From an uncultured bacterium (GTDB lineage: Bacteria; Hydrothermota; UBA3073; NMUJ01; CBEVQO01): a stretch of DNA of 64,000 bases. The position numbers were made by a program, and so were the translations under genes. Of this stretch, positions 611 to 58,450 are shown one piece after another (position 1 is the stretch's first letter; the number at the start of each line of letters is the position of its first letter). The stretch is from positions 32,001-96,000 of the forward strand of contig CBEVQO010000004.1 in assembly GCA_965552055.1 (NCBI GenBank), read 5' to 3'. Under the pieces are notes generated by a model, which saw only the letters and a program-made list of their open reading frames with translations, had not been told where the DNA came from and searched no databases.

Positions 611-637
611 ATTTTATCTATTATTTCAAAATGTCAA
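611..637 (-). promoter_or_regulatory. sigma70-like promoter TTGACA-N15-TAAAAT, 7 nt before the yjbQ ATG
   Basis: Reverse complement reads TTGACA ttttgaaataataga TAAAAT ttaaaga ATG. Confidence 0.7.
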
Positions 638-642
638 GGGTA

Positions 643-1392
643 TTATCGTAAAAACATCCAGTCATGTGATTTGTATTTTTCTTTCAATTTTTCGGCGAGT
701 TCCATTTCGTAACTCTCTGGTTGTGCGACTTCAAATTTGAAGCCCCTTTTTTCCATTCCCTTAATGAGTGCTTTTTTTAATTCTTCTATTTTGAATTTTT
801 TACCCGTTATTTCTTCTATCGATGGTTGAATTCCGTCTTTTATCACGAGATTTATGGGAAGATGTGGCTTTATTACGGGTATTACGCCCTGCTGGAGTAT
901 GAAGCCTTTTTCCCTGTATTGTGCACTTCCAAGTATTTTTTTGCCTTTTATCGTTAATTCATACCTTGATGGTGCTCCAAAGCATGCTCTCAAACCTTTA
1001 TATTTCAAAGTTCCGCGACTTAATTCACAGGAAATTCCCAGCAATTTAAAACCTTCTGCAAATGCTAAACTTAGTTTTTCAAAAGTTTGAAGCGGATTCC
1101 CGCCGAGTAGAGGATTACTTTCCCTTATCATAAAACTATATGTAAGGTCACCGCAATGAAAAACAGCCCTTCCTCCTGTGGGTCTTCTTACGACATCAAT
1201 GCCATACTTTTTACAATTTTCAAAATTTATGTCATCTGCGTGTTGTAATCTGCCAAAAGTTATTGCAACCGGATTAAATGTAAAAAAACGGAATGTCTCG
1301 GGAGAGCGCCCTTCTTTTACGAAGTGAAAAATAGCTTCATCAAGTGCCATGTTAAAGAATGCATCATTTTCGCCGGTATCTATAAGGCGCAT
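643..1392 (-). CDS. Lipoate-protein ligase A / LipM octanoyltransferase family
   Basis: NMALDEA, VVRRPTGGRAVFH, KKILGSAQ motifs. Confidence 0.85.
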   Translation of the reverse strand: MRLIDTGENDAFFNMALDEAIFHFVKEGRSPETFRFFTFNPVAITFGRLQHADDINFENCKKYGIDVVRRPTGGRAVFHCGDLTYSFMIRESNPLLGGNPLQTFEKLSLAFAEGFKLLGISCELSRGTLKYKGLRACFGAPSRYELTIKGKKILGSAQYREKGFILQQGVIPVIKPHLPINLVIKDGIQPSIEEITGKKFKIEELKKALIKGMEKRGFKFEVAQPESYEMELAEKLKEKYKSHDWMFLR

Positions 1393-1398
1393 TAAATT

Positions 1399-3186
1399 TT
1401 ATACCTTAGGATAAAGGTCAAGGGCTGTAAACCATTCTTTTAATTTTTCTATTCTTTTCTTTCTATCTTCTGGAATTTGAAGTGGTCTACCTCTGCAATC
1501 TATTATCAATCCGACTGTACCGCCCTCTATTTTTGCTACTGTCTTTTTGCCTTTGCCTTCTCCTACATCAAAGCCCTTTGCAGGTATTATTTCTACTTCT
1601 TTAATTTCTCCTCTTTCCAAAGGTATTCTTTTAATTTCACCGAAATTCACTTTTATTTCTTCGCCGTCCATTTTTACTGTTACACAGTGTTGTCCTTCTT
1701 TTCCTACACCTTTGGGTGCAATACATGTTCCCAATCTTACAAGGCAATCTTTGTCAAAAACTTCCATAGCTGCTTTTTCGTGGACTGTTGCTAACACACC
1801 CAGATGTGGCATCATAAAGATACTGTCAACTGTTAACATTGTTACACCTTCTGGCTGGAATGCATCGATCATCATAAGTGCAGATTGTACACGCCTTGGA
1901 GCATGTGACAATACTCCACCAGAACCTATCAATAAATTTAATTCCATCATGTTGATTAATGTTTGACCTGTCATCGTTTGTTCAAATGCATCGGAGATTG
2001 TTCTTTCCTGTTGTACACCTTTTAGTCCAACTGCCATGGTTTTGTGATGCTCAAAAGCCAATCTCAATGCTTCCCTTGCTATTGCCTGTTCTATCATTAA
2101 TTCATCGAGTGTTTGAGGAATTGATGTTGGTCTAATCATCTTATTTCTGATTCTGTTAATAAGGTCACTTTCTTCTATTTCAAAAGGAATCCATCTCATT
2201 ATGTTTTCTATTCCTGCTTCTACAAGCACATTCGATATTGAATAACTCATTCCAAGGTTTGCGGAAACTGTGCGGTTGAAAACGCCCTGAAATACACTGA
2301 AAACATCGGTTGTTGCACCACCTATATCAACGCCGATGACAGAGATTCCTCTTTCTCTACCTACTCTTTCAACAAGATATCCGACTGCTCCTGGTGTGGG
2401 CATTATTGGGGCGTCAGTCCAAGACATCAATTTAGGGTATCCAGGTGCATGTGCCATTACATGTTCCATGAACAATTCATGAATTTTATTCCTAGCAGGT
2501 TGTAGATTCTCTTTTTCGAGCACAGGTCTTATATTGTCAACTATTTCGAGTGCTGTTTTTTCTTTTAATACTTCTTTTATTTTTTCTCTTGCATCTTTAT
2601 TCCCAGCATAAACTACTGGCAATCTGTAATCTGTTCCAAATCTTGGTCGGGGTTCAGCTGCTCTTATTATTTCTGCAAGTTCTACTACATGGGATATTGT
2701 TCCACCATCAACTCCTCCTGCGAGCAAAATCATATCCGGTCGCAGATGTCTAATTACTTCTATTTTCTGGTGTGGTAAGCGTCCATCGTTTGATGCTATG
2801 ACTTCCATTACAATTGCTCCTGCACCTAATGCCGCTCTTTCTGCGCTTTCAGCGGTCATGGATTTTACAACACCCGCTACCATCATCTGTAATCCGCCGC
2901 CTGCACTCGAAGTGGATACATAAATATCAACGCCTTCTTTATCGTTTTTCCTTGGTTTTATAATTTTTTCACCTTCCAGTATCTTTTTGCCGGTTAACTC
3001 TTCAAGTTCCCTTACGGCGTTTAAGACCCCTCTTGTTACATCTTCAAAGGGTGCTTCAACCGTCGTTGGTGCTTCTCCTCTTGCGATCAATCTATATTCT
3101 TCGCCTCTTTTTTCTATCAAAATTGCTTTTGTTGTAGTACTGCCACAATCTGTTGCTAATATTGTATTAATTTCATCGGGCTTCAT
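1399..3186 (-). CDS. GlmL/MutL (glutamate mutase L)-like ASKHA ATPase
   Basis: Two phosphate motifs TDCGSTTTKA and VDIGGATTDVFS; SSAGGGL, MPTPGAV, IGSGGVL. Confidence 0.8.
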   Translation of the reverse strand: MKPDEINTILATDCGSTTTKAILIEKRGEEYRLIARGEAPTTVEAPFEDVTRGVLNAVRELEELTGKKILEGEKIIKPRKNDKEGVDIYVSTSSAGGGLQMMVAGVVKSMTAESAERAALGAGAIVMEVIASNDGRLPHQKIEVIRHLRPDMILLAGGVDGGTISHVVELAEIIRAAEPRPRFGTDYRLPVVYAGNKDAREKIKEVLKEKTALEIVDNIRPVLEKENLQPARNKIHELFMEHVMAHAPGYPKLMSWTDAPIMPTPGAVGYLVERVGRERGISVIGVDIGGATTDVFSVFQGVFNRTVSANLGMSYSISNVLVEAGIENIMRWIPFEIEESDLINRIRNKMIRPTSIPQTLDELMIEQAIAREALRLAFEHHKTMAVGLKGVQQERTISDAFEQTMTGQTLINMMELNLLIGSGGVLSHAPRRVQSALMMIDAFQPEGVTMLTVDSIFMMPHLGVLATVHEKAAMEVFDKDCLVRLGTCIAPKGVGKEGQHCVTVKMDGEEIKVNFGEIKRIPLERGEIKEVEIIPAKGFDVGEGKGKKTVAKIEGGTVGLIIDCRGRPLQIPEDRKKRIEKLKEWFTALDLYPKV

Positions 3187-3202
3187 ATCCCCCTCCGCAA
3201 TA

Positions 3203-3229
3203 ATTTTAATCCAATAATGAGAATGTCAA
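3203..3229 (-). promoter_or_regulatory. promoter TTGACA-N15-TAAAAT for the GlmL-like gene
   Basis: Read directly; a GGAGGGGG RBS follows. Confidence 0.7.
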
Positions 3230-3285
3230 GGGTAAAATGATAAAAAATTGAGCTTGACAAATTAAAATTTTGGATATTTATATAA

Positions 3286-3358
3286 TGCGGGGTGGAGCAG
3301 CTGGTAGCTCGCCGGGCTCATAACCCGGAGGTCGTGGGTTCGAATCCCACCCCCGCAA
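3286..3358 (+). tRNA. tRNA-Met(CAT), initiator type, no encoded CCA
   Basis: Acceptor TGCGGGG/CCCCGCA; anticodon arm CCGGG-CTCATAA-CCCGG with three G-C pairs; A11-U24; T arm GTGGG-TTCGAAT-CCCAC. Confidence 0.95.
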
Positions 3359-3370
3359 CTTTTTATTTTT

Positions 3371-3904: not shown

Positions 3905-4222
3905 AATTTTGAATTCCACGCGACGATTTAATGCCCGCTCTTCTTCTGTTTCGCCTTTTGTAAGGGGATATTTCTCACCGTATCCTACTGCTTTTATTCT
4001 ATCCGGTGAAATACCGTGCTCTACGAGATATTGTTTTACTGCGAGGGCACGCTTTTCTGAAAGCTTTAGATTATATTCTTCGCTACCGAGTTCATCAGTG
4101 TGACCCGCTATTTCGACTATCATACCAGGGTGTTCTTTCATAATCCTCACGAGTCTATCGAGTTCATATTTTGATTCGGGTTTCAGTTCGTATGAATCGA
4201 AATCAAAGAAAATATTTCGCAA
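3893..4222 (-). CDS. OmpA-like peptidoglycan-binding domain; probably the frameshifted C-terminus of the WD40 gene
   Basis: NIFFDFD, IAGHTD..G...YN..LS..RA, NRRVE; weak TTG start and no signal peptide of its own. Confidence 0.85.
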   Translation of the reverse strand: MRNIFFDFDSYELKPESKYELDRLVRIMKEHPGMIVEIAGHTDELGSEEYNLKLSEKRALAVKQYLVEHGISPDRIKAVGYGEKYPLTKGETEEERALNRRVEFKILKY

Positions 4223-7133: not shown

Positions 7134-7907
7134 TCACTTTTTAAATTTTATATCTTCTAACTTAAATTTTTCTATACCTTTGCCTTCGAATTTCACATAA
7201 ACATATTTTCTGAAAAGGTCAAGTTCGCTTACAATTCCTTTACCTGCTGGAGTTTCTACTTCATCACCGACCATCGGGAATTTATCCTGTATTTCTTCGT
7301 AAAATTCTTTTTCAAAAGCAAGACAGCACATAAGGCGACCACAGACACCTGTCACTTTGTCTATTCCACAGCTGAGACGCTGTAATTTTATCAAACTTAC
7401 GCCTATTGATTCAAATTCTTTAATAAAGGTAGAACAACAAGTTGGCAAGCCACACACTCCGTATTCTGTGAAGAGTTTTGCATAATCGCGTGCACCCATT
7501 TGCTGGAGCTCTACCTTTAACTTAAATTGCCTTGCAGTGGCTCTTGCTAAATTTTTGAGATTAAGTTTCTTTTCTGATAAATATCTTATCTTTATGTAAG
7601 TGCCATCAAATTTTATGTGATGGTCTGCGATTTTTACAGGTAAATCTTTTTCTTTTATTTTTTGTCTGATAAAATCAATAATTTTTTCTGCTTTTTTCTT
7701 TTGCTCTTCGTATTTTTTAAGGTCTTCTTCTGTTGCTTTTCTAACGATTAAAAATCCGACTTTTCCTTCTTTTATTATGTTTATGATTTCACCTATATCC
7801 AGTCCTGCGTGAGTTTTAAATATGACAATATCACCTGGTTTATAATCTAAGTATGGTGTAAAAGATGCTTTTACTATATCTGGACCTGTTTTTATTTCGG
7901 CAATCAT
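7134..7907 (-). CDS. PSP1 / RicT (YaaT) family Fe-S protein
   Basis: G.CG.PTCC..F and G.CGRLMCCL.FE motifs. Confidence 0.85.
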   Translation of the reverse strand: MIAEIKTGPDIVKASFTPYLDYKPGDIVIFKTHAGLDIGEIINIIKEGKVGFLIVRKATEEDLKKYEEQKKKAEKIIDFIRQKIKEKDLPVKIADHHIKFDGTYIKIRYLSEKKLNLKNLARATARQFKLKVELQQMGARDYAKLFTEYGVCGLPTCCSTFIKEFESIGVSLIKLQRLSCGIDKVTGVCGRLMCCLAFEKEFYEEIQDKFPMVGDEVETPAGKGIVSELDLFRKYVYVKFEGKGIEKFKLEDIKFKK

Positions 7908-8012
7908 ACTAAAATTTTTAATAAAATAATGAGGATGTCAAGTTGAAAATTTTTTTATTTTTTTCTTGACAAATCTCCTTTTTGAATAAATATGGAGTAG
8001 AAAGGGGGTGTT

Positions 8013-14307: not shown

Positions 14308-14534
14308 TCTTTATTTTCTGTCACAAATATTGCGAAGTCAGGGCAGGTATATTCGCAAATTTTACAATTTACACATTTTTCAGGATATTTCGCATAAGGA
14401 TAGTGATATCCTTTTTCATTAAAATCCTTTGACATTTCAAGGACTTTACGGGGACATAATTCTACACAATAGGTACATCCTTTGCATCTTGTTTTTATAA
14501 CATTTATTTTGTATCTGGGTTTTGTTTCTGTCAT
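14304..14534 (-). CDS. 2x[4Fe-4S] ferredoxin, likely 2-oxoacid:ferredoxin oxidoreductase delta subunit
   Basis: [12 protein letters not shown] and [21 protein letters not shown] motif. Confidence 0.85.
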
Positions 14535-15397
14535 AATATTTCTTTTAAAATTTGTGCTACTTCTGCGGGTTCTGTTGCAACTTTTACTCCTACTTCATTA
14601 AATACTCTTATTTTTTCTTCGGCTGTACCTTCACTTCCAGCGATTATTGCACCAGCATGTCCCATACGCTTACCAGGAGGCGCTGTTTTACCGGCGATAA
14701 ATGCAACAACAGGTTTTTTAATGTGCTCTCTTATAAAATAAGCAGCATCCTGTTCATCTGTGCCACCTATTTCTCCTATCAAAACAACGGCAGAAGTATC
14801 TTTATCTTCTTCAAACATTTTGAGTAAATCTATAAATTTAAGACCAATTACCGGGTCACCTCCTATACCTATACAGGTAGATTGTCCCATTCCGCTTTTC
14901 GTTATGTGATAAACTATTTCATAGGTCAAGGTGCCGCTCCTTGATATTACACCGATATTACCCGGTTTAAACACATGAGCAGGCATTATACCGACTTTAC
15001 ATTTACCGGGACTTATGATTCCAGGGCAATTGGGTCCTACGAGTTTTACTCCTTTGTAATCGAGGTATTTTACCACTTTTGTCATCTCATCTACGGGTAT
15101 TCCTTCGGTTATACAAACTATAAGTTTAATTCCTGCATCCGCTGCTTCATAAATTGCATCTGCTGCAAATGCTGCCGGCACGAATATTATTGAAGTATCG
15201 GCTCCTGTTTCTTTTACTGCCTCTTCTACAGTGTTGAAAACAGGTACATTCTCAACCTTTTGACCGCCTTTACCAGGGGTAACACCTGCAACAACCTTGG
15301 TGCCATACTGGAGCATCATCTTTGTATGAAAAGAGCCATCCCTACCTGTTATACCCTGAACCAGAACCTTTGTATTTTCATCCACAAGGATACTCAT
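14531..15397 (-). CDS. sucD: Succinyl-CoA ligase alpha subunit
   Basis: [27 protein letters not shown] (phospho-His). Confidence 0.97.
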
Positions 15398-15405: not shown

Positions 15406-15432
15406 ATTATAATAAAAATTTATGTTTGTCAA
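15406..15432 (-). promoter_or_regulatory. promoter TTGACA-N15-TATAAT, 8 nt before the sucD ATG
   Basis: Perfect hexamers, 15-bp spacer, no RBS. Confidence 0.75.
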
Positions 15433-20782: not shown

Positions 20783-21591
20783 TTTACCCCCTCTTTTAAT
20801 CTCTCTTCAAAAGTTTTTCTCTCAATGTCAACAAATTTACCACAAACTATTTTATCAGATGTGAGGTCGGTTTCTTTTGGGTCTGCTCCGTGTTTTATCA
20901 CAGATATTTTTCGGAATAATTTAATCCATTCTACACCCTGTGGCATTTTATTTCTTCTACCATAACATGTTGGACATTGGGATATTACTTCTACAAATGT
21001 AAATCCCTTTTTTAAAATTGCTTCCTTTATCGATTTTACCAGCTGCAATGGATGAGCGGTTGTCCATCTTGCTACATAAACGGCACCGCAAGCAGCAGTA
21101 ACCCAGCAAAGATTAAAGGGATACTCAAAATTACCGTAAGGCGAAGTGGTTGTTCTACCGCCAATGGGTGTTGTTGGACCAACCTGACCGCCTGTCATAC
21201 CGTAATTGAAGTTGTTAACACAAATTACTGTCATATCGATGTTTCTCCTTGCAGCATGTATCAAATGATTTCCACCTATGGCAAAGAGGTCACCATCCCC
21301 ACTTATTATGACAACATTCAATTCAGGGTTTGCAAGTTTTAAGCCCGTTGCAAAGGGAATTGCCCTTCCATGTGTCGTATGATATGTGTCAAATTTTAGA
21401 TAACCGGGAGCCCTTCCTGTGCAACCAATTCCCGATACAATGCAAAACTTGTCAAGGGGTAAACCCGAATCTTTTATCGCTTTTAGCATGCAAGATACAA
21501 CAGTGCCTATTCCACATCCAGGACACCAGATATGGGGAAGACGCTCTGTTCTCAAAAGGTCATCCAGTGGATGTTTCAAATTTTCGCTCAT
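20779..21591 (-). CDS. korB: 2-oxoacid:ferredoxin oxidoreductase beta subunit
   Basis: WCPGCG, SGIGC, HGRA, TPP motif GDGD...NN, YGMTGGQ. Confidence 0.95.
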   Translation of the reverse strand: MSENLKHPLDDLLRTERLPHIWCPGCGIGTVVSCMLKAIKDSGLPLDKFCIVSGIGCTGRAPGYLKFDTYHTTHGRAIPFATGLKLANPELNVVIISGDGDLFAIGGNHLIHAARRNIDMTVICVNNFNYGMTGGQVGPTTPIGGRTTTSPYGNFEYPFNLCWVTAACGAVYVARWTTAHPLQLVKSIKEAILKKGFTFVEVISQCPTCYGRRNKMPQGVEWIKLFRKISVIKHGADPKETDLTSDKIVCGKFVDIERKTFEERLKEGVK

Positions 21592-22736
21592 TTTAGTAAT
21601 TGCTTCGCTTTCTCATATATTTCCTGCATTGTTGGGAGACCACCACCGGGATGCCCCACAAAACCCATCTTAGCTCCGCCTTTGTTGCATCTCTCAACTT
21701 CATAGTAAATTTGACGATTGTTTAGTTCACAAACCAGAAATGCACCGCATTTTGACGAAAGCTCTGTTATCTTTTTCTCGGGAAAAGGCCAGACCGTTAT
21801 CAGACGCAAAAAGCCGGCTTTTACACCTTCATTCTTTAGCCGTTCGAATACAGGATAAATAAGACGGGCAGATACGCCGTAAGATACAAATACGATGTCA
21901 GCATTATCTGTATCTATCTCTTCAATTTTTGTGATTTTTTCTGCGTTCTTTTTTATTTTGTTACAAATTCTTTCTATCAGCTTTTTATGTGCTTCGCCAT
22001 TCATAGCGTCATATCCTCTTTCGTCGTGTGTAAGCCCTGTTGTGTGAGCTTTATAACCTGTGCCTGCAATTGCCATCTCAGGTATCAAACTCTCATCTGC
22101 AAGATATGGAAAATAATCTTCGGGAGGTTTTGAGGGTCTCTTCCTTTCCACCAATTTTATATCTTCTTCTTTTGGGATAACTACTTTTTCTGTCATATGT
22201 CCTATTATCGCATCGGACATTATGAAAACAGGGATTCTGTATTCTTCTGCGTAATTAAATGCCTCGATTGTTAAGTCAAAGCATTCCTGCACGGAACTCG
22301 GTGCAAGAGCAATAATTTCATAGTCACCATGAGAGCCCCATTTTGCCTGCATTATATCCGCTTGAGCCCATAAAGTCGGCAAACCGGTAGATGGTCCTGC
22401 TCTCTGAATATCTGCAATTACACAGGGTGTCTCCATCATTATGGCGAGTCCTATGTTTTCCATCATCAGTGAAAAGCCAGGTCCTGAAGTTGCTGTCATA
22501 CTCTTTGCACCAGCCCATGATGCTCCTATTATCGCAACGATGGAAGCAATTTCATCTTCCATCTGTATAAACACTCCTCCGACTTTTGGCATCCTTAAAG
22601 CCATCCTTTCGGCTACTTCTGTGGCAGGGGTTATAGGGTAGCCGGCAAAAAAATTACAACCAGCAGCTAACGCTCCTTCTGCAATAGCAACATCTCCTTC
22701 CATAAAATGAACACCCGTTAAAATTCTGCCCTCCAC
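21588..22736 (-). CDS. korA: 2-oxoacid:ferredoxin oxidoreductase alpha subunit
   Basis: AGYPITPATE, QMEDE, TATSGPG, QRAGPSTGLPT. Confidence 0.95.
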   Translation of the reverse strand: MEGRILTGVHFMEGDVAIAEGALAAGCNFFAGYPITPATEVAERMALRMPKVGGVFIQMEDEIASIVAIIGASWAGAKSMTATSGPGFSLMMENIGLAIMMETPCVIADIQRAGPSTGLPTLWAQADIMQAKWGSHGDYEIIALAPSSVQECFDLTIEAFNYAEEYRIPVFIMSDAIIGHMTEKVVIPKEEDIKLVERKRPSKPPEDYFPYLADESLIPEMAIAGTGYKAHTTGLTHDERGYDAMNGEAHKKLIERICNKIKKNAEKITKIEEIDTDNADIVFVSYGVSARLIYPVFERLKNEGVKAGFLRLITVWPFPEKKITELSSKCGAFLVCELNNRQIYYEVERCNKGGAKMGFVGHPGGGLPTMQEIYEKAKQLLK

Positions 22737-22741: not shown

Positions 22742-22768
22742 ATTATAATCAAATAATTTCTATGTCAA
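22742..22768 (-). promoter_or_regulatory. promoter TTGACA-N15-TATAAT, 5 nt before the korA GTG
   Basis: Read directly. Confidence 0.75.
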
Positions 22769-24332: not shown

Positions 24333-24421
24333 CGGAGGGGGTGGGATTCGAACCCACGCGGGGATTTTACTCCCCTACGCGATTTCGAGTCGCGCGCCTT
24401 AGTCCACTCGGCCACCCCTCC
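24333..24421 (-). tRNA. tRNA-Ser(CGA), no encoded CCA
   Basis: Acceptor GGAGGGG/CCCCTCC with G discriminator; anticodon arm CGCGA-CTCGAAA-TCGCG; long variable arm. Confidence 0.95.
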
Positions 24422-24439: not shown

Positions 24440-24466
24440 ATTTTAACCTTAACTTCATTTTGTCAA
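24440..24466 (-). promoter_or_regulatory. tRNA-Ser promoter TTGACA-N15-TAAAAT
   Basis: Read directly. Confidence 0.75.
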
Positions 24467-27209: not shown

Positions 27210-27236
27210 AATGTATAAATATTTTTAAATTGTCAA
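27210..27236 (-). promoter_or_regulatory. rtcB promoter TTGACA-N15-TACATT
   Basis: Read directly; AGGAGG RBS downstream. Confidence 0.65.
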
Positions 27237-29196: not shown

Positions 29197-29224
29197 ATTA
29201 TAACAAAGAATAAAAATTTGTCAA
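29197..29224 (-). promoter_or_regulatory. promoter TTGACA-N16-TATAAT
   Basis: Back-to-back with the guaB promoter. Confidence 0.65.
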
Positions 29225-29234
29225 CCCATTTATC

Positions 29235-30720
<1,486 letters not shown>

Positions 30721-40209: not shown

Positions 40210-42089
40210 TAGATATCGAGATTTACTGCAAACTGTGCGTTTTCTTCTATGAATTTGCGGCGTGGCTCAACTTTCTCGCCCATCAAAATAGAAAATAATC
40301 TATCTGCCTCTTCTGCATCTTCTATCGTCACCTTCTTTATAACTCTCTTTTTCGGGTTCATCGTGGTTTCAAATAATTCATCAGCATTCATTTCTCCCAA
40401 ACCTTTATATCTTTGGATCTCCACTTTTGTGTCTCCCAATCTTTTAAGCAAGCGCTTCAATTCTTCATCAGAATGCACATAGTAAACCTCTTTTTTGGTT
40501 TTAACTTTATAAAGAGGTGGTTGTGCTATAAACAATTTGCCTTTCTCAATGATGTCTCTACCATATCGATAGAAAAGAGTTAGTAAAAGCGTGCGTATGT
40601 GTGAGCCATCGATATCTGCATCTGTCATCAAAATTATTTTCCCATAGCGCAATTTGCCCGTGCCCATACCTGTAGCTGCCATTATCGCTTTTATCTCATC
40701 ATTTGAGAAAATTTTATCGGGTGATGCTTTCTCAACATTTAAAATTTTTCCTTTCAATGGTAATATCGCCTGATAGCGTCTGTCCCGTGCTTGCTTTGCA
40801 GAACCACCAGCTGACTCTCCTTCCACAATATATAACTCGGAGTGAGGAGAGCCCCTGTTTGAGCAATCAGCCAGTTTACCCGGTAAGCTTCCAAACTCTA
40901 TTTTTGCCTTTTTGCGCTCTACTTCGCGTGCTTTTTGAGCAGCAATCCTTGCCCTCGCAGCATTTATAACCCATTTTATTATCCTTTCAGATTCCCTTGG
41001 ATTTTCTTCAAAATATTTTGATAAATGTTGCCTTACAATACCTTCAACTATCCCCTTTACTTCACTGTTTCCCAATTTTGTCTTTGTCTGACCTTCAAAC
41101 TGTGGATTTGGCACTCTTACAGAAAGCACACAGGTCAAGCCTTCCCTTGCATCGTCACCTGTAATCTGGATATTTTTCTTTACAAGATTCATTTTCTTTG
41201 CAAAGTCATTTATCACTTTTGTTAATGCCGATTTAAATCCTATTAAATGTGTTCCGCCTTCTTCTGTATGAATGTTATTTGCATAGCAATAAATATCTTC
41301 GATGTAAGTTGTTGTATATTGCATCGCAAGTTCTAACTGTATGTTTTCCCTTTCATCTTTCACATAAATTATTTTGTGAATCGGGTCTCTACCTTCATTC
41401 AAATACTCAACAAATTCAACCACACCTCCATCATATTTAAAAGTTATAACTTTATCTTTCCTGCCTTCAATTTTGACATCTATTTTTATCCCTTTATTTA
41501 AAAATGCTAATTCCCTTGCTCTTGCCTGAATTATTACAGGGTCAAATTTTATCGTTCTTTTAAAGATTTCTTTATCGGGCAAAAATCTTATAAGTGTGCC
41601 TGTTTTAAATTCTGGTTTTTTGTTCAAAACTTTTAACTCGGTTTTTGGCTCTCCTCTTTCGTATCTCTGATAATAAACTTTTCCGTCTCTCATAACTTCT
41701 ACTTCGAGCCACTCAGATAGTGCATTCACAACGGATATTCCTACACCGTGCAATCCCCCAGCTACTTTATAAACTTTGTGGTCAAACTTTCCACCTGCAT
41801 GTAGTGTTGTTAAAACAACTTCAACTGCTGGACGCTTCTCTGTGGGATGGATATCAACCGGTATTCCTCTTCCGTTATCTAGCACGCTCACGCTTCCATC
41901 TTTGTGCAGTGTTATCCTTATGTAATCGCAGAAGCCAGCCATTGCCTCATCTATACTGTTATCAACTACTTCGAATACAAGATGATGCAAACCCCTTTTA
42001 TCGGTATCCCCTATATACATCGCTGGCCGCTTCCTTACTGCCTCAATATCTTTTAAAACCTGAATTTTCGATGCATCATATTTGCTCAT
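40209..42089 (-). CDS. gyrB: DNA gyrase subunit B
   Basis: EAVRKRPAMYIG, EVVDNSIDE, LHAGGKF, VEGESAGG, MTDADIDG, QRYKGLGEMN, terminal NLDI. Confidence 0.93.
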   Translation of the reverse strand: MSKYDASKIQVLKDIEAVRKRPAMYIGDTDKRGLHHLVFEVVDNSIDEAMAGFCDYIRITLHKDGSVSVLDNGRGIPVDIHPTEKRPAVEVVLTTLHAGGKFDHKVYKVAGGLHGVGISVVNALSEWLEVEVMRDGKVYYQRYERGEPKTELKVLNKKPEFKTGTLIRFLPDKEIFKRTIKFDPVIIQARARELAFLNKGIKIDVKIEGRKDKVITFKYDGGVVEFVEYLNEGRDPIHKIIYVKDERENIQLELAMQYTTTYIEDIYCYANNIHTEEGGTHLIGFKSALTKVINDFAKKMNLVKKNIQITGDDAREGLTCVLSVRVPNPQFEGQTKTKLGNSEVKGIVEGIVRQHLSKYFEENPRESERIIKWVINAARARIAAQKAREVERKKAKIEFGSLPGKLADCSNRGSPHSELYIVEGESAGGSAKQARDRRYQAILPLKGKILNVEKASPDKIFSNDEIKAIMAATGMGTGKLRYGKIILMTDADIDGSHIRTLLLTLFYRYGRDIIEKGKLFIAQPPLYKVKTKKEVYYVHSDEELKRLLKRLGDTKVEIQRYKGLGEMNADELFETTMNPKKRVIKKVTIEDAEEADRLFSILMGEKVEPRRKFIEENAQFAVNLDI

Positions 42090-47205: not shown

Positions 47206-47657
47206 TATTTCTGATGCTCACAAGGTCCTTCATTCAAGTTTTTACCGCAAATAGGGCACAATCCCTTGCAATCGGGTTTGCAGAGCATCTTTATGGGTAT
47301 CGAAAGCAAAATAGTGTCTCTTACAATTTCCTCAAGGTCTATCTCGTCCCCGTAATATGGCACGGTATCTATTTCTTCCTGTGTTAATTCAAGTTCCCTG
47401 CGCTGAACAAAAAGCTCAGGAGGCACACAGGTAACATTTATCTCAGCTTCCATTTCTTTCTCAAATTCCTCTGCACATCTTGCACATATAAATCGACCTT
47501 TGAAACATACTTTTCCTGTTATATGGACTCGCTTTTTGGCTTTCATCAATACAATTTCGACTTGTGGTCTGTCTATCAAAAAGTCAGCAATTTCCTTTGA
47601 CAAAGTGAATTTCATCCTATTCTCGCCTTCTGCAAGCGAATGTACATTTATTCTCAA
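47205..47657 (-). CDS. yceD: YceD/DUF177 family protein
   Basis: CARC, IDL.....D.ILL..P...LC.PDCKGLCP.CG.NLN; TTG start after AGGAGG. Confidence 0.88.
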   Translation of the reverse strand: MRINVHSLAEGENRMKFTLSKEIADFLIDRPQVEIVLMKAKKRVHITGKVCFKGRFICARCAEEFEKEMEAEINVTCVPPELFVQRRELELTQEEIDTVPYYGDEIDLEEIVRDTILLSIPIKMLCKPDCKGLCPICGKNLNEGPCEHQK

Positions 47658-49400: not shown

Positions 49401-49427
49401 ATGATAAGAATTATAAGAGTTTGTCAA
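49401..49427 (-). promoter_or_regulatory. promoter TTGACA-N15-TATCAT
   Basis: Back-to-back with the rarA promoter. Confidence 0.65.
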
Positions 49428-49444
49428 CTTAAAATTCACAAAAC

Positions 49445-49472
49445 TTGACAAATAAAAATTTTAAAGTATAAT
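49445..49472 (+). promoter_or_regulatory. rarA promoter TTGACA-N16-TATAAT
   Basis: Perfect hexamers; ATG 6 nt downstream (49479). Confidence 0.7.
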
Positions 49473-50856: not shown

Positions 50857-50883
50857 TTGACATTTAGAAAAAATCATTATTTT
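50857..50883 (+). promoter_or_regulatory. rgy promoter TTGACA-N15-TATTTT, 8 nt before ATG
   Basis: Read directly; no RBS. Confidence 0.6.
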
Positions 50884-50891: not shown

Positions 50892-53800
50892 ATGGATGTT
50901 AATGTAATTTATAGAAATTTGTGTCCTGTTTGCGAAAGGGAGCTCACACTCTCCGAGATTGAAAAAGGCATCTGTCAGCGCACAGGCAGACCCTTCAAGG
51001 ATGTCAAATTCGAGAGGAAACTAAAAGATTTTGAAAAGTTTTTCAGAGAATTTGTCGGAAGCCGTCCCCGTAATATTCAAAGAATATGGGCAAAAAGAAT
51101 CTTAAAAGGCGAATCCTTCGCAGCAATAGCACCAACAGGAATAGGAAAAACAGTTTTCAGTATTTGCATGGCTATGTTCTTATCAAAGGAAAAGAAAAAA
51201 ACTTATTGCATACTGCCAACTACAACACTCCTCGAAAATATCAGAGAAAAAGTTTATAATTTCCTGAAACAGAAAAAAGAAAATATAAACATACTTTTCT
51301 ATCATTCAAAGATAAGGAAACAGAAAGAAGCAAAAGAAAGATTGGAAAAAAGGGATTACGATGTGCTCGTAACAACAAATGCCTTTCTTGCAAAAAACTT
51401 TGACCTTATAAAAGATGTAAAATTTGATGTAATCTTTGTGGACGATGTAGATGCACTTATGAAAGCATCAAAGAACATAAACAGAATTTTAATGCTCGCA
51501 GGATATACGGAAGATGAAATTAAAAAGGGAGAACCTGAAGAAGATAAAAAAGGTATTTTCATGATTTCTACTGCAACGGGTACACCGGGTAGAGGAACAA
51601 ATTTATTCAGAAAATTATGCAACTTCGATGTTGGATATGTAAAAGAGACCGTTAGAAATGTTTCGGATATTTTTGTGGAAGAAAAATCGATTGAAAAGTT
51701 AAAAGAAATTTTACGAATTTGTGGAACAGGTGGGTTAATCTTTACAACATCTGAAGAAGAAGCAAAAGAACTTTACGAAAAGTTAAAAGAAGATTTCAAT
51801 TGTGATATAATGATTTCAACGCAAAAAACGAATTTAAAAGATTTTGAATATGGCAAAATAGATATTTTGATAGGAGTTGGAAGTTATTATGGTTTACTTG
51901 TAAGAGGGATTGACCTTCCCGAAAGAATAAGATATGCGATATTTTATGGAGCACCTCGTTTCGCGTTCAGGATAAACCTCGAAGATATAAAAAATGGTGT
52001 GGCTCTATATCTTGCAAGAGTAATCGCAAGAAAAGAAAAAAATAGAGGACTTATTAAACTTGTAAATTACAGGGCTATTGACAAAATAAAAGAAATTTTG
52101 AAAGAAAAATTACAAAGCTATTCAGAGGAGGATTTACAATCTCTCGGTATTTATCTTAAAGGCGACAGGATGATAATCCCGGATATAAAGACCTATATTC
52201 AGGGCTCCGGAAGGACATCTCGTCTCTATGCCGGCGGTATCACAAAAGGTTTAACTATATTGATGGAAGAAGATAAAAATCTGCTCAATTTCTTTATAGA
52301 AAAAGCAATGATTAGAGATATAACCTTTGAAAAATTTGAAGAAGAAAAAATCAAAGAAATTCTGGAAGAAGTTGATAGAGACAGAGAGAATATAAGATTG
52401 CGTCACAGGGCAAAAGATTTGTTGAAGCCGATTTTATTCATCGTGGAGAGTCCGAATAAAGCACGCCAGATTGCAAGTTTCTTTGGCAAACCGAGTGTAA
52501 GAAAAATATTCGGAATAAATGTTTACGAAGTTTTAACAGGTGATAAGTTGCTTATGATAGCACCAACTTTTGGACATATGGTTGACCTTACAGAAGAAAA
52601 TGTTGGATTTTATGGAATTGAGATAAAAGATGGAAACTTTATCCCTGTTTACGGAACTATCAAAAGATGCAAAAAGTGTAACTTTCAATTTGTAAAAGAT
52701 ATAGATTTTTGTCCGAGGAAAAATTGTGGTAGCAAAGATATTTTTGATGCAAAAAATCAGATAAGGGCTTTGCAGAGGTTAGCGCTTGAGATGGAAAGAG
52801 TTTACATAGGAACAGACCCGGATACGGAAGGCGAAAAAATTGCTTGGGATGTTTATAACCTTTTGAAACCTTATGCAAAGGAGATAAAGAGAGCAGAATT
52901 CCACGAAGTAACGAAAAAAGCAATAGAAGAAGCTCTCAAAGATTTGAGAGATATCGATGAAAACCTTGTAAAAGCACAGCTCGTTAGAAGGATAGAAGAC
53001 AGATGGACGGGTTTTGAGCTTACAAAAAGGTTAACAAAAGCATTTTCAGATGAAAAAGAACGCTTATTATCCGCTGGAAGAGTGCAATCACCGGTACTCA
53101 AATGGATAATCGACAGGACAGAAGAACATAAGAAGAAACAGAAAATATTTATATCAGAAGATGGTAAAATATGGATTAATCTGCCGGAAGGTGTTGATGT
53201 GAAAGATAAGTTAAAGGTTAAGATAAAAATAGCAGATGTATATGAAAAAGATTTAATCGTTCATCCTTTTACTACGAATACGATGTTGCGTGATGCCAGC
53301 AGGCTGTTGCGTCTATCAGTAAAAGATGTGATGGCGAGTGCACAAAAATTGTTTGAAATCGGATTGATAACCTATCACAGAACAGATAGCGAAAGAATAT
53401 CCGAAAAGGGACACGAAGTAGCAAGGCGCTTACTTGAGAAAGATTTCGTAAAAAGGACATTTGGTGAAGGAGGGGCACATGAAGGAATTAGAATAACGAA
53501 ACCTTTGCGTCCCGAAGAATTGAGAATTTACTTTGAAGAACTCGGAATTGTAGCACCTTTGACAAAAGAAGATTTTAATCTTTATAAGTTGATTTTCAAC
53601 AGATTTCTTGCATCCCAAACCCATCCAGCAAAAGTTAAATATCAAAAAGTTATTTATGTGGTTGATGGGCATGAAATTGAAGAAGAGCGTCCCGTTGAAG
53701 CCAGTGGAAAATCTTATGAATTCTGCCCTTATATTATAAATGTCAGGGATTCTTTAAGAGAAGGGGAATATGTATTAAAGGGCAAAGTAGAAAAGATACC

Positions 53801-54143
53801 AGTTGTGCCTTTGTTCACACAATCAGATGTAATAGCACAGATGAAAGAAAGGGGAATAGGGAGACCTTCTACTTATTCTGCGATACTTACAAAGCTTTTC
53901 GAAAGGGGGTATATCTACGAATTAAATAAGACGCAAAAAATAATAGCAACGACATTGGGGAAAAAGTGCGGAGAATATCTTTTCACACATTACAGTCAAT
54001 TTGTATCAGAAGAAAGGACAAAACAATTGGAAGAAATTATGGACGAAATAGAAAGGGGTGAGAAGGACTATAAAAAAGTACTCGAAGAACTTTACGAAGA
54101 AATACAATCGCTTAATAAATTTAATTCCTGCTTGACAGATTGA
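50892..54143 (+). CDS. rgy: Reverse gyrase
   Basis: N-terminal CPVC; APTGIGKT; DDVD; YIQGSGRTSRL; Toprim IVESP.KA and TDPDTEGE; topo IA SAGRVQ, ITYHRTDS, GIGRPSTY. Confidence 0.97.
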   Translation: MDVNVIYRNLCPVCERELTLSEIEKGICQRTGRPFKDVKFERKLKDFEKFFREFVGSRPRNIQRIWAKRILKGESFAAIAPTGIGKTVFSICMAMFLSKEKKKTYCILPTTTLLENIREKVYNFLKQKKENINILFYHSKIRKQKEAKERLEKRDYDVLVTTNAFLAKNFDLIKDVKFDVIFVDDVDALMKASKNINRILMLAGYTEDEIKKGEPEEDKKGIFMISTATGTPGRGTNLFRKLCNFDVGYVKETVRNVSDIFVEEKSIEKLKEILRICGTGGLIFTTSEEEAKELYEKLKEDFNCDIMISTQKTNLKDFEYGKIDILIGVGSYYGLLVRGIDLPERIRYAIFYGAPRFAFRINLEDIKNGVALYLARVIARKEKNRGLIKLVNYRAIDKIKEILKEKLQSYSEEDLQSLGIYLKGDRMIIPDIKTYIQGSGRTSRLYAGGITKGLTILMEEDKNLLNFFIEKAMIRDITFEKFEEEKIKEILEEVDRDRENIRLRHRAKDLLKPILFIVESPNKARQIASFFGKPSVRKIFGINVYEVLTGDKLLMIAPTFGHMVDLTEENVGFYGIEIKDGNFIPVYGTIKRCKKCNFQFVKDIDFCPRKNCGSKDIFDAKNQIRALQRLALEMERVYIGTDPDTEGEKIAWDVYNLLKPYAKEIKRAEFHEVTKKAIEEALKDLRDIDENLVKAQLVRRIEDRWTGFELTKRLTKAFSDEKERLLSAGRVQSPVLKWIIDRTEEHKKKQKIFISEDGKIWINLPEGVDVKDKLKVKIKIADVYEKDLIVHPFTTNTMLRDASRLLRLSVKDVMASAQKLFEIGLITYHRTDSERISEKGHEVARRLLEKDFVKRTFGEGGAHEGIRITKPLRPEELRIYFEELGIVAPLTKEDFNLYKLIFNRFLASQTHPAKVKYQKVIYVVDGHEIEEERPVEASGKSYEFCPYIINVRDSLREGEYVLKGKVEKIPVVPLFTQSDVIAQMKERGIGRPSTYSAILTKLFERGYIYELNKTQKIIATTLGKKCGEYLFTHYSQFVSEERTKQLEEIMDEIERGEKDYKKVLEELYEEIQSLNKFNSCLTD

Positions 54144-54158
54144 CGCACCAGTTATAAT
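54132..54158 (+). promoter_or_regulatory. TA operon promoter TTGACA-N15-TATAAT
   Basis: Perfect hexamers with a 15-bp spacer. Confidence 0.75.
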
Positions 54159-54184
54159 AAGGATGGAAAATCAGTTGTTTAGAG

Positions 54185-55055: not shown

Positions 55056-55086
55056 AAACGCGGAAGAAAAGATAGAGAAATTACAC

Positions 55087-55113
55087 TTGACAAAATAAAT
55101 TTTGCATTAAAAT
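55087..55113 (+). promoter_or_regulatory. apt promoter TTGACA-N15-TAAAAT
   Basis: Read directly. Confidence 0.75.
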
Positions 55114-55137
55114 AAGAGTGTTTAGGGGAGGTCTGTC

Positions 55138-55656: not shown

Positions 55657-56963
55657 TAGAAATTCAAAGAACAACCGCCCTTGATATAATTGAGCATTTA
55701 GGCGCGTATGGAACACCTCCGGAATATGGAGTGCGGTATTTTACCGAAGGCATACAGCATCTGCTTGATTTCTACAAAAAGGAATACTTCGCTGAATTTA
55801 TAAAAAATGGTGGCTCTATTTTCCGACTGGTTACAGGGGGGTATGGCTCGGGCAAAACCCATTTCCTCTACTGCATAAGGGATGTCGCATGGGAAGAAAA
55901 TTATCTCGTGAGCTATGTTTCGCTTTCACCGAGAGAATGTCCATTTACAGACCTGTCAAAAGTGTATCAAAGCATAGTTAACAATTTGATGTATCCGATG
56001 ACAGAAAAAGAGTTAAAAGACCCTACAGAGCACGGTATTAACGGTGTATTAAAAGTATTTGTGAGGGAGAAATTTTTGCAGGGTGATGGCAACGAAAAGA
56101 TAGATAATTTGTTAAAATCTCTGAGAATGGATTTACAATCTGTGGAAAGCAGCAGTTTTGCTCACGCAGTTTATCATGCTATAAGAAGTTTAGTAGAGGA
56201 AGATTTTGATATTTATGAGGGATGTCTTCAATGGTTAAAAGGCGAAGAACCTCCATCGGAGATAAAATTGCGTTACGGCATAACAGAGAAGTTAGATAAA
56301 ACAACAGCTCAAAGGAGAATAAGGTCTCTTGCTCAAACTGTTCGCAAAATGGGCTATTCTGGTCTTGTTTTGATATTTGATGAAGCAGAGATGATGACAA
56401 GCATAGCCACTCAGCGCTCCAAAAAGCAGGTTTTGAACAATTTGCGCGAATTGATAGATGAATGCGCAAGAAGGGGGCGTTTACCTTCTACTGTTATGTT
56501 TTATGCGATACCCGATAAAAGAGAGTTACTCGATGGTGAAGGTCCGCATTATGAAGCATTGCGTCAGAGGGTTTCTTCTTACTTCAACAATATGACAAAT
56601 CCATCCGGAGTGATAATAGACCTTGAGAATCAAAATCTTTTGAGGATAAGAGAGGATGAGCTTTTGAAGAAAATAGGTGATAAAATATCGCAAATATATT
56701 TTGTTGCATATCCGGAGGCACTTATTCCACCAAATCAGTTAAAAGAGATGATACAGGGTATAGTTGATGAGGTTATAAAGGTAGCACCGGGTGTTGTATC
56801 TCCGCGCAGGTTGTTTGTGAAAAGTTTGATAGCTGTTTTACATCTGTCAAGAGCAAGAGCAGGGGCACCTGTTTTGGAAGATGAAATAAGGGACATCGTA
56901 AAAGAAAACTTACAGGTAGAAGTAGAAAGACAGGAAAATTATTCAGAAGAAGAGGAATTTTGA
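55653..56963 (+). CDS. DUF2791 / BrxD-like P-loop ATPase
   Basis: GTPP..G, FRLV.G.YGSGKTHFL, VSYV.LS, GY.GLVLIFDEAE, Y.AL.QR. Confidence 0.75.
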   Translation: MIEIQRTTALDIIEHLGAYGTPPEYGVRYFTEGIQHLLDFYKKEYFAEFIKNGGSIFRLVTGGYGSGKTHFLYCIRDVAWEENYLVSYVSLSPRECPFTDLSKVYQSIVNNLMYPMTEKELKDPTEHGINGVLKVFVREKFLQGDGNEKIDNLLKSLRMDLQSVESSSFAHAVYHAIRSLVEEDFDIYEGCLQWLKGEEPPSEIKLRYGITEKLDKTTAQRRIRSLAQTVRKMGYSGLVLIFDEAEMMTSIATQRSKKQVLNNLRELIDECARRGRLPSTVMFYAIPDKRELLDGEGPHYEALRQRVSSYFNNMTNPSGVIIDLENQNLLRIREDELLKKIGDKISQIYFVAYPEALIPPNQLKEMIQGIVDEVIKVAPGVVSPRRLFVKSLIAVLHLSRARAGAPVLEDEIRDIVKENLQVEVERQENYSEEEEF

Positions 56964-56992
56964 CAATATAATTCCAAGTTTTTCATATTACA

Positions 56993-57460
56993 ATGTGGAT
57001 GGCAAGAAATATGAATGCAAAATTCAAAAAAGCTGAATATTTGATTTATGCTTTGACTTCGCCTCAACGAGAAGAAGGTCATCTTTCTTTAAAAGAAAAT
57101 CAAAAATTAGAAATGGAGTTAATAGATATAATTACTGATCTTCAAGATGAAAGTGAAAAAAGAGATTTTGTGAATTTTTTATTCAAGATGGCAAAAGAAG
57201 ATGCCATTATAACATTTGTTTTACAATTGTTTTTAAGATATTTTGATGTTTTTAAAAAAATTGTTGCGAAGAAAAAAGAAAAATTGCTAAAATATGCTTC
57301 ACACAAAGATCCGATGATTGGCTATCTTTCTATAAGTTTGTTTTTGAAACTTCTACAAAGTGAGTTAAAGGAAAGTAGTGTCAGCATAGAAAATAACGAA
57401 ATATTAAAGAAGCGTATGCAAATAGTGATGAAGAATAAAGAAATATTCGGGTTAACTTAG
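56993..57460 (+). CDS. Hypothetical all-helical (HEAT-like) protein
   Basis: Helical pattern, L..ASHKDPMI; TTGACA-N15-TTTCAT upstream. Confidence 0.55.
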   Translation: MWMARNMNAKFKKAEYLIYALTSPQREEGHLSLKENQKLEMELIDIITDLQDESEKRDFVNFLFKMAKEDAIITFVLQLFLRYFDVFKKIVAKKKEKLLKYASHKDPMIGYLSISLFLKLLQSELKESSVSIENNEILKKRMQIVMKNKEIFGLT

Positions 57461-58360
57461 GACTTTACAAAATTTCTCGATAATTTCTTCGATTAAATCT
57501 TTCTTTACAATTTTGTTCAGCCAATTTTGGGGTATTGCCTCGTATCCGTAATAGGTGCCGCTCAACCCTCCTGTAACCGCACCAATTGTATCCGTATCGC
57601 CACCGAGATTCACAGCGCGTAAAAGAGAATCGGTAAAGCTTTGGGTCGTTAAAAAACTCCATAAAGATGCTTCAAGGGTATCAATGACATATCCCGAGCT
57701 CTTTATCAAATCTTCATTTAAGTTATAAATATTGCAATCAAGGATTCTGCTAAAATGCTTTAACTCCGAAAAGAAAGGTTCATCTTTATAAAATTCTTCA
57801 ATTTCTTTGACAGCACTGTAATATGCTTTGAATTTATCTTCGCCTTCAATGATGTGAACGATTATTCTGCAATAAAATGAACATGCTATCAGGCTTCTTG
57901 GATGTGCATGTGTTATTGCTGAAATTTTATGTATTTTTTCACAGAAATCTTTTAAAGGTAATTTTTTAAAATAAAAAGCTGCTGGTAAAATTCGCATGAG
58001 TGAGCCATTGCCGTTTGACCACTCATCTTTGCCACCCGATTTTTCAGGCGAAGCACCCCTCATAATTCTTTGAAGCGCTAATCGAGTGGTTCTGCCAATA
58101 CCTATCGGATAACCAAAGGGGGTCAAATATCCTTCTTTATACCATTTTATAAAATTTTGTGCAATATCGTTTAAGTCAAATCCTTTAATCAAACTATCAC
58201 AAAGACAAAGTGTAAGCGATGAATCATCAGACCATACCCCCTCTTTTAAATCTTTTATAGGATTTTTGCGTAAATATCCGCGGGAAGAACCCTCACGCTG
58301 AAAGCCAAGGACATCACCTAAAATAACACCCCATAATCCTCCTTTAACTCTCCCTTCCAT
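57452..58360 (-). CDS. ADP-ribosylglycohydrolase (DraG/ARH family)
   Basis: GD.LG, WSDDS, GNGSLMRI, TH, GGDTDT. Confidence 0.93.
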   Translation of the reverse strand: MEGRVKGGLWGVILGDVLGFQREGSSRGYLRKNPIKDLKEGVWSDDSSLTLCLCDSLIKGFDLNDIAQNFIKWYKEGYLTPFGYPIGIGRTTRLALQRIMRGASPEKSGGKDEWSNGNGSLMRILPAAFYFKKLPLKDFCEKIHKISAITHAHPRSLIACSFYCRIIVHIIEGEDKFKAYYSAVKEIEEFYKDEPFFSELKHFSRILDCNIYNLNEDLIKSSGYVIDTLEASLWSFLTTQSFTDSLLRAVNLGGDTDTIGAVTGGLSGTYYGYEAIPQNWLNKIVKKDLIEEIIEKFCKVLS

Positions 58361-58366
58361 CTATAA

Positions 58367-58393
58367 AAATTACAAAAAAATAAAAAATGTCAA
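58367..58393 (-). promoter_or_regulatory. promoter TTGACA-N15-TAATTT, 6 nt before ATG
   Basis: Read directly; no RBS. Confidence 0.65.
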
Positions 58394-58423
58394 TCAATAA
58401 AATTTTAAAGTGAAAAATTTTTC

Positions 58424-58450
58424 TTGACAAAGGTGGATGATGTTTAAATT
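58424..58450 (+). promoter_or_regulatory. promoter TTGACA-N15-TAAATT for the DUF6754-like operon
   Basis: Read directly. Confidence 0.65.

Follow-up and report, generated by a model that had tools for sequence, protein, structure and literature searches.

Promoters with a 15-bp spacer throughout the genome of an uncultured bacterium of the Hydrothermota

The window analysed here, a stretch of 64,000 nucleotides (nt; 64 kb) at positions 32,001 to 96,000 of contig CBEVQO010000004.1 (assembly GCA_965552055.1) of an uncultured bacterium of the phylum Hydrothermota, carries gyrB, the gene for reverse gyrase, genes for tRNA-Met and tRNA-Ser and several metabolic genes. It also contains a series of -35/-10 promoter pairs in which the hexamer TTGACA and a TAnnnT box are separated by 15 base pairs (bp; Table 1). 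A preliminary description of the window listed 13 such sites, each of which proved correct in sequence, coordinates and strand; a 14th match to the pattern was also located. The 14 matches compare with 1.08 +/- 1.04 expected by chance (100 dinucleotide shuffles, none of which reached 14), and the corresponding 17-bp pattern occurs once against an expectation of 1.15. This lone 17-bp match is a poorer second reading of the site at 15406-15432, whose box at 15 bp is a perfect TATAAT. Both 16-bp sites listed are real, that at 29197-29224 being on the minus strand, and the four weaker boxes at 15 bp are TATTTA at 3254, TAAAAA at 7941 on the minus strand, TAAATA at 7966 and a doubtful TTTCAT at 56960. 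A TATAAT placed 21 bp from the TTGACA at 3254 was rejected as the -10 box of the tRNA-Met gene, an impossible assignment because it extends into the tRNA by that molecule's first base. Several divergent genes have back-to-back promoters with -35 boxes approximately 10-30 bp apart (7915-7992, 29197-29261, 49401-49472 and 58367-58450).

Table 1. Promoter sites and associated genes in the 64-kb window.
Feature	Position	Strand	Remarks
Promoter TTGACA-N15-TAAAAT	611..637	-	In-frame ATG 7 nt past -10; UPF0047 gene 187-603
Promoter TTGACA-N15-TAAAAT	3203..3229	-	Gene 1399-3186
tRNA-Met promoter TTGACA-N15-TATTTA	3254..3280	+	Weaker box
tRNA-Met	3286..3358	+	Mature 5' end 32 nt from first T of TTGACA (Rfam too)
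Promoter TTGACA-N15-TAAAAA	7915..7941	-	Weaker; ATG 7 nt on; gene 7134-7907
Promoter TTGACA-N15-TAAATA	7966..7992	+	Weaker; back to back with 7915..7941
Promoter TTGACA-N15-TATAAT	15406..15432	-	Succinyl-CoA ligase alpha-like gene 14531-15397
Promoter TTGACA-N15-TATAAT	22742..22768	-	2-oxoacid:ferredoxin oxidoreductase gene 21588-22736
tRNA-Ser promoter TTGACA-N15-TAAAAT	24440..24466	-	tRNA-Ser 24333-24421
Promoter TTGACA-N15-TACATT	27210..27236	-	rtcB 25762-27192
Promoter TTGACA-N16-TATAAT	29197..29224	-	16-bp spacer
Promoter TTGACA-N15-TAAAAT	29235..29261	+	IMP dehydrogenase 29269-30720
TTGACA-N14-TATAAT	30806..30831	+	14-bp variant; absent from earlier list
gyrB	40209..42089	-	Only genomic partner is the GyrA without GyrA-box, contig C1, outside window
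TTGACA-N15-TAnnnT match	47597-47623	+	14th match; antisense within open reading frame, no gene behind
Promoter TTGACA-N15-TATCAT	49401..49427	-	
Promoter TTGACA-N16-TATAAT	49445..49472	+	16-bp spacer; mgsA-like gene, with in-frame ATGs 3 and 6 nt past -10
Reverse gyrase promoter TTGACA-N15-TATTTT	50857..50883	+	
Reverse gyrase	50892..54143	+	TIGR01054 1108 bits, cut-off 472
Promoter TTGACA-N15-TATAAT	54132..54158	+	Overlaps reverse gyrase end
Promoter TTGACA-N15-TAAAAT	55087..55113	+	Phosphoribosyltransferase gene
TTGACA-N15-TTTCAT	56960..56986	+	Doubtful weak site
Promoter TTGACA-N15-TAATTT	58367..58393	-	ATG 6 nt on; ADP-ribosylglycohydrolase
Promoter TTGACA-N15-TAAATT	58424..58450	+	In-frame ATGs 2, 5, 11 nt on; DUF6754

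The same spacing prevails throughout the genome (G000; 2,226,318 bases or 2.23 Mb in 15 contigs, 97% complete), for which open reading frames (ORFs) were called with a simple script and sequence inside or outside ORF cores was taken as coding or non-coding, respectively. The 663 TTGACA hexamers outside ORF cores are followed by TAnAAT at 15, 16 and 17 bp in 239, 37 and 12 cases, and by TATAAT in 111, 26 and 5; the 1155 hexamers within ORF cores give a near flat 22, 12 and 9 for TAnAAT, with a slight excess at 15 bp. Without any -10 box being required, the bases found 15 bp downstream of 520 upstream TTGACA hexamers formed the logo T.83, A.80, W, A.72, A.69, T.72. A mixture fit to these hexamers over spacers of 12-20 bp assigned 388 to 15 bp, 46 to 16 bp, 6 to 14 bp, 1.6 to 17 bp and 79 to none, with a fitted -10 matrix of T.96, A.98, W, A.84, A.75, T.87. 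Extension of the fit to upstream TTGAC[AT] (n = 627) placed approximately 433 sites at 15 bp, 50 at 16 bp and 1.5 at 17 bp, a distribution that departs from 17 +/- 1 bp. The -35 hexamer is nearly invariant, TTGACT being its only common variant (at 15 bp before 22 of 724 unit heads), and the -10 box conforms to TAnnnT with its T, A and final T the most conserved. An exact site of 15 or 16 bp precedes 221 of 366 divergent and 134 of 358 tandem unit heads, and promoters of the TTGACA type are present at tRNA, rRNA and core genes, including 26 of 47 tRNA/tmRNA genes and, with two sites, the 16S gene. A spaced-word search of the 363 of 724 unit heads that lack an exact 14-16-bp site yielded no second promoter class for another sigma factor; what it recovered were variants with TTGACT, promoters belonging to the divergent partner, and words from tRNAs or repeats. 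Likewise, the patterns tried for FliA-type sites had no match in the unit heads of G000. The 15-bp spacing, proposed earlier from the window, is thus confirmed genome-wide, and the mode at 17 bp that would have spoken against it is absent. The approximately 430 upstream TTGACA/TA(A/T)AAT sites with this spacing are likely the main promoters of G000.

Mature tRNA 5' ends and first in-frame ATG codons served as proxies for the site of transcription initiation, with distances counted from the first T of TTGACA. The canonical start lies at 35 nt by this measure, given a 17-bp spacer and transcription that begins 7 bp past the -10 box (PMC12641261). In G000, the 26 tRNA/tmRNA genes mentioned above have TTGACA no more than 70 nt upstream, followed at 15 bp by TA in 25 of them and by a full TAnnnT in 20. 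For 10 of the 26, the mature 5' end, beyond which transcription cannot begin, falls at 32-34 nt, where ARAGORN ends may be one base off for some genes. The implied pre-tRNA leaders are only 0-4 nt; absence of RNase P as the reason for such short leaders was discounted, as RNase P RNA was found in G000. With protein-coding genes, an in-frame ATG begins 5 nt past the box at 62 of 321 sites and 6 nt past it at 35, compared to 7 and 3 out of frame. With a 15-bp spacer, in-frame ATGs set in at 32 nt (95 of 339 sites, compared to 9 out of frame), and with 16 bp they do so at 33 nt (14 of 64; one at 32); in the relatives G050 and G100 the onset is, on small counts, at 34 nt for 16-bp and 35 nt for 17-bp sites. 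Because this onset shifts with the spacer, the start would appear to follow the box, which argues against a shifted register of the sigma-B kind. The proxies, at 32-34 nt, do not move the true -10 box further downstream, the possibility raised against the 15-bp reading at the outset, and starts appear to fall approximately 5 nt after the box, for which the canonical proxy is 6 nt. As an ATG 5-6 nt past the -10 box leaves no room for a ribosome-binding site, many mRNAs of G000 are likely leaderless; the base before such an ATG is often G, and a start on the A or on that G would both fit. Apparently leaderless examples in the window lie at 58360, 7907 and 603. The TG dinucleotide of an extended -10 element is also displaced, occurring at -16/-15 in 139 of 488 G000 sites against 22 at the usual -15/-14; in family f4 of the same class, the respective values are 0 and 15 of 26 sites.

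Spacing in relatives was assessed with whole-genome counts of the strict pattern TTGACA-Nx-TAnAAT at 15/16/17 bp, which are 261/49/21 in G000. Three genomes of its sister family, f2, gave 9/2/0, 4/4/2 and 4/1/0. The counts are 17/17/6, 13/15/8 and 10/21/10 in f3, 2/37/22, 5/29/25 and 8/41/11 in f5 (with 9/34 at 15/16 only for G161), 5/100/45 and 3/44/44 in f6, and 1/5/12 in f7, and f4 is a sharp 17-bp family (0-3/2-10/152-277 over eight genomes). A looser -10 fit, run on fetched parts of genomes, gave 28.5/15.8/0 of 64 sites for G001 of f2 (400 kb of 1.4 Mb), 4.6/63.5/52 for G045 of f3 (400 kb), 0/37/27 for G050, 2.5/54/21.5 for G100 and 0/0/26 for G065 (193 kb); f3 is thus roughly even between 15 and 16 bp on the strict pattern but at 16/17 on the looser one. 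Outside the class, 17-bp sites exceed 15-bp sites in 138 of 141 sampled genomes on comparison by eye, the exceptions being 4:2, 1:0 and 2:2, and 16 bp is the clear mode in several (e.g., 3/46/16, 2/73/39 and 3/44/27; 16 bp was counted in 40 of the 141). Among the genomes searched, the 15-bp mode is confined to the order of G000, with the rest of the phylum at 16 or 17 bp, and since kin are not independent it represents one evolutionary event. The idea of a smooth 17-16-15 series within the class was dropped because a tree of RpoB (17 rows, unrooted, no outgroup) separates the 15-bp from the 16-bp groups by the two families at 17 bp, and because modes of 16 bp are also frequent beyond the class. 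In the phylum, several families (G007, G010, G025, G049, G052 and G105) have 16 bp as their commonest spacer, on which the published surveys, in the text available, are silent.

Five proteins of G000 match sigma70 region 2: an RpoD of 575 residues, a short sigma factor of 265 residues, a FliA-like factor and two small ones. The gene for RpoD (C7:57373-59100; L002) adjoins dnaG and encodes regions 1.1 to 4 in one protein, the best database homolog of which is 35% identical. Its score is 285 bits against an RpoD equivalog cut-off of 354 (TIGR02393, RpoD_Cterm), its identity to other RpoDs of the class in regions 2-4 is 48-51% where the class families share 60-80%, and its end branch is 0.71 compared to a median of 0.11; the flap domain of the G000 RpoB is as near to class relatives as these are to one another. 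Alignment of regions 3-4, as had been proposed, did uncover insertions and deletions (indels), namely one residue deleted from the helix of region 3.0 and, in region 3.2, two insertions of a single residue each; all three are missing from 17 of 17 class RpoDs, as they are from the top five PDB alignments displayed. Among 84 parsed homologs, only the G000 protein has a WW-to-GREP distance of 41. The number of its conserved columns changed is 26 of 101 (8-15 in relatives), none of them in the helix-turn-helix of region 4.2, and the region 4.2 recognition helix is intact in both G000 sigmas. An AlphaFold model of RpoD comprises folded sigma domains, with no placement on the core, and in it the protein seemingly has two region 1.1-like domains (residues ~1-60 and 67-120) of matching secondary structure. 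A search for close relatives of this RpoD gave four distant matches among genome contigs and, among metagenomes, one identical copy and two distant matches; cluster members, which may or may not share a source organism, are 99.8% (RpoD) and 96% (short sigma) identical.

The short sigma lacks region 1.1 and was found in 22 of 22 genomes of the class, flanked wherever the flanks are long enough by degP-like and M23-peptidase-like genes (labels read from sequence). Its named homologs include entries from WOR-3 and TA06 32_111, which makes WOR-3 the likely affiliation of the phylum, and many Bacteroidota RpoD/SigA proteins. The C-terminal extension kept by these Bacteroidota homologs, which packs on the flap tip, is absent from the short sigmas of the class, and that its loss plays a role here is a guess. 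Changed columns in the short sigmas of G000 and f2 number 12 and 11 of 64, compared to 12-23 of 64. With f2, no match to RpoD was obtained in any of three genomes (66, 87 and 99% complete), whereas one was obtained in 17 of 18 other genomes of the class; the gene after dnaG is an unrelated one in two of two genomes, and the sigma complement consists of the short sigma and an extracytoplasmic function (ECF) factor, with no other group 1 or 2 sigma. By elimination, therefore, the short sigma would read the 15/16-bp promoters of this family. All five of the outside genomes tested, with modes of 16 or 17 bp, keep a long RpoD. In f4, it is the short sigma that is altered, beside an ordinary RpoD: the leading Trp of its region 2.3 pair is gone, together with approximately seven residues of region 3.2; these losses (L044-L049) form the mirror image of the order of G000.

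A holoenzyme with a shorter ruler, i.e., a shortened promoter geometry, very probably accounts for these promoters. Such an enzyme would read both boxes in the normal -35/-10 register and hold sigma region 4 approximately 2 bp nearer region 2. As its cause, a handover of the housekeeping role from the long RpoD to the short, Bacteroidota-type sigma70 is tentatively favoured, at rather less than an even chance. The handover would have happened once, at the root of the order, and as a single event it would account for the 15-bp spacers of both families, the loss of RpoD in f2 and the fast-changing RpoD of G000, in which the short sigma would most likely be the factor that reads the sites. Relaxed DNA, resulting from loss of the GyrA-box in the presence of reverse gyrase (see below), may then have sharpened a 15/16-bp preference to 15 bp in G000. 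Taken as a whole, the explanation that combines 15-bp main promoters, a normal register and a geometry shortened through the sigma handover is the best available, held just short of even confidence. A fuller scenario, of a species caught in mid-handover within an order whose ruler was reset by two bp, and with lost negative supercoiling fixing the approximately 430 promoters at 15 bp, is rather unlikely. The altered housekeeping sigma first envisaged from the window is borne out to the extent that RpoD has changed here and is lost in the sister family, its role being deduced from these patterns.

A number of observations weigh against this explanation. The -10 consensus is TAwAAT in G000 and TAnTTT in f2, as if different sigmas were at work, TG at -16/-15 occurs in only 4 of 47 f2 sites, and the f2 assemblies are fragmented (66-99% complete). 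The short sigma of G000 shares 49% identity with that of f2 in regions 2-4, less than is usual for a main sigma, and the better conservation of the short sigma is biased in that its reference set was picked by likeness to the G000 protein. The RpoD of G000 does not resemble a product of neutral decay, being full length, beside dnaG and folded in the AlphaFold model (pLDDT 84), and its changes cluster in regions 2.4-3.0 (10 of 21 columns against 16 of 80; p = 0.02, post hoc). One of the two rRNA promoters before the 16S gene is also readable as TATAAT at 18 bp. Furthermore, a mode of 16 bp can arise without loss of RpoD from the family, and Bacteroides, with a main sigma of the short type, is among the 49 genomes in which 17 bp predominates (PMC12641261).

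The mechanisms considered are not mutually exclusive. The strongest alternative to the handover, though itself unlikely, is that the long RpoD has remained the main sigma and was remodelled for 15 bp, f2 having reached 15/16 bp with the short sigma. The three indels and the changes in regions 2.4-3.0 would then displace the surface that faces the spacer, along with the register of the extended -10 element, and leave the reading of the -35 box as it was. This would agree with the absence of these indels elsewhere in the class, the unique WW-to-GREP distance, the sparing of the region 4.2 helix by changes that concentrate in 2.4-3.0, the placement of TG at -16/-15 in a manner not seen in f4, and a -10 consensus like that of RpoD-keeping f4 and unlike that of f2. 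It requires two separate solutions within one order, however, and both the sub-threshold RpoD_Cterm score and the fast change of the protein speak against it, the latter fitting relaxed selection too.

A change in the core enzyme is less probable again. Substitutions in the beta flap tip and the beta' zipper would, in this case, move region 4 of any sigma closer, such that both sigmas operate at 15-16 bp, and one spacing with two sigma complements would be accounted for, as would the 16-bp modes seen with ordinary RpoDs. At the flap tip, K822R is common to G000 and f2, and G839A, A842S and D847N occur in G000 alone, all in columns invariant in the other families; E33D of the beta' zipper (read by eye) is also shared with f2. 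The changes shared with f2 are conservative, however, and the four in the flap are among approximately 40 of 360 such columns (by eye). The beta-flap indel suggested earlier as a source of altered geometry is not present in any of 19 class genomes, and the regions shown of the beta' zipper, clamp helices and lid are free of indels in 14. The rpoC gene of f2 lies apart from rpoB, on different contigs with other neighbours (L198, L199, L212, L214-L216), and in the str operon of G000 an unrelated ORF of 230 residues (C1:187446-188138, minus strand) separates the rpsL-like and rpsG-like genes.

DNA topology was the other explanation offered at the outset, in the form of promoters tuned to the twist set by reverse gyrase plus gyrase. 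Within the class, reverse gyrase occurs only in the order of G000 (3 of 22 genomes), and G000 is likely a heat-loving bacterium. The sole GyrA of G000 (C1:27242-29584, plus strand; L232) has a clean nine-residue gap at the GyrA-box, its C-terminal domain is divergent, and it scores 817 bits with TIGR01063 against a cut-off of 877. The box, QxRGGxG, is present in 13 of 13 other class GyrAs aligned, including that of f2; the alignment took in 14 of the 19 genomes that had a match, and loci split by contigs or insertions were mostly left out. Several GyrA frames of f4 (L230, L231 and L234), of 1120-1264 residues, break after model residue 66, which suggests an intein-like insertion. [quoted passage not shown] Judged from its sequence, the organism is probably without a gyrase capable of negative supercoiling, and it may be an Aquifex-like bacterium that has reverse gyrase but no negative supercoiling. 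Were an ordinary holoenzyme to act at a shorter spacer on a relaxed or overwound chromosome, these features would suffice, yet the published equation gives a best spacer of 17 bp at a superhelical density of -0.06 and of 16 bp at 0, and reaches 15 bp only at approximately +0.065, all taken as twist (PMC9303308). Moreover, f2 has the 15-bp mode with an intact GyrA-box. Reverse gyrase as a sufficient cause was rejected, since a mode at 15 bp was seen in none of the 31 further carriers of the phylum: 17-bp sites outnumber 15-bp sites in 30 of them, with one tie of 2:2, and families f28 and f30, which combine reverse gyrase with substituted GyrA-boxes, have spacers of 16-18 bp. The substituted boxes are at L264-L270 (f28) and at L260-L262 and L271 (f30), and the f28 promoters listed, broadly spaced at 16-18 bp, often have CC just before the -10 box. 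Topology as the main cause is therefore distinctly improbable; it can be a possible modifier, not the cause, and of the earlier proposal, which is not supported in its original wording, a topological contribution may survive in this species only, with the GyrA-box missing. Finally, a spacer short in appearance only, through a sigma-B-like shifted register with partly double-stranded reading and a -35-to-start distance of approximately 35, is very improbable: S. aureus sigma-B has spacers of approximately 14 bp (PMC11156646) and TA(A/T)AAT moved by two bases still leaves A at -11, but no conserved T occurs two bases past the box (A.43/T.42), a start in that register would lie downstream of the tRNA ends and ATGs at 32-34 nt, and one more base of spacer shifts the ATG onset by one base.

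Compared with known systems, the G000 promoters resemble those of canonical sigma70/sigmaA in having both hexamers, the emphasis on T-12, A-11 and T-7, an A/T tract and C before the -35 box, and in serving tRNA and rRNA genes as well as those of core metabolism; they differ in the spacer of 15 rather than 17 bp, in start proxies 5 rather than 6 nt past the -10 box, and in a TG placed one base upstream. The Bacteroidota factor sigma-ABfr is likewise a short, RpoD-like sigma without region 1.1, in a lineage that, as f2, has no long RpoD. Its -33 TTTG/-7 TAnnTTTG elements are unlike the TTGACA and TAwAAT of G000, neither G000 nor G001 has a TG tail after the -10 box, and the G000 spacer is shorter than reported for Bacteroidota and Chlorobaculum promoters (PMC7366714; 10.1101/172254). 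G000 also differs from the Bacteroidota in keeping a long RpoD besides the short sigma. With S. aureus sigma-B, a similarly short gap between the written boxes results from a distinct -10 element that regions 2 and 3 recognise while the sigma domains keep their normal positions (PMC11156646), whereas the -10 motif of G000 is ordinary and its start proxies lie nearer the -35 box (32-33 nt). Aquifex, too, has reverse gyrase. A. aeolicus shares with G000 a single GyrA/GyrB pair without a canonical GyrA-box (PMC2647321); in G000 the box is deleted outright.

In a panel of 49 genomes with mapped transcription start sites, the 17-bp spacer is predominant (PMC12641261), and ProFinder reports a median of 17 bp in every panel genome, with 99.2% within 16-18 bp (10.64898/2026.09.23.753901). 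The scans behind such surveys are bounded, however, one at 15-19 bp with a penalty trained on Escherichia coli and ProFinder at 16-18 bp only; hence, ProFinder cannot see 15-bp promoters, and its main text does not mention WOR-3. No report of a 15-bp housekeeping spacer, of WOR-3/Hydrothermae promoters or of promoter spacing in Aquifex was found in the literature searched, to which subscription journals are largely external.

The 15-bp form is a new variant of the sigma70 promoter, the mechanism of which is directly testable. A spacer of 17 bp is regarded as a constant of bacteria, and promoters of perfect consensus at 15 bp are a clear exception to it; promoter finders accordingly need a wider spacer window. 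A holoenzyme tuned to 15 bp could yield promoters that are poorly read by ordinary hosts. Within the phylum, relatives at 15, 16 and 17 bp have comparable sigmas, core subunits and topoisomerases and thus allow subunit swaps, by which an old question is made testable: whether the distance between the -35 and -10 boxes is measured by sigma, by the core enzyme or by the twist of the DNA.

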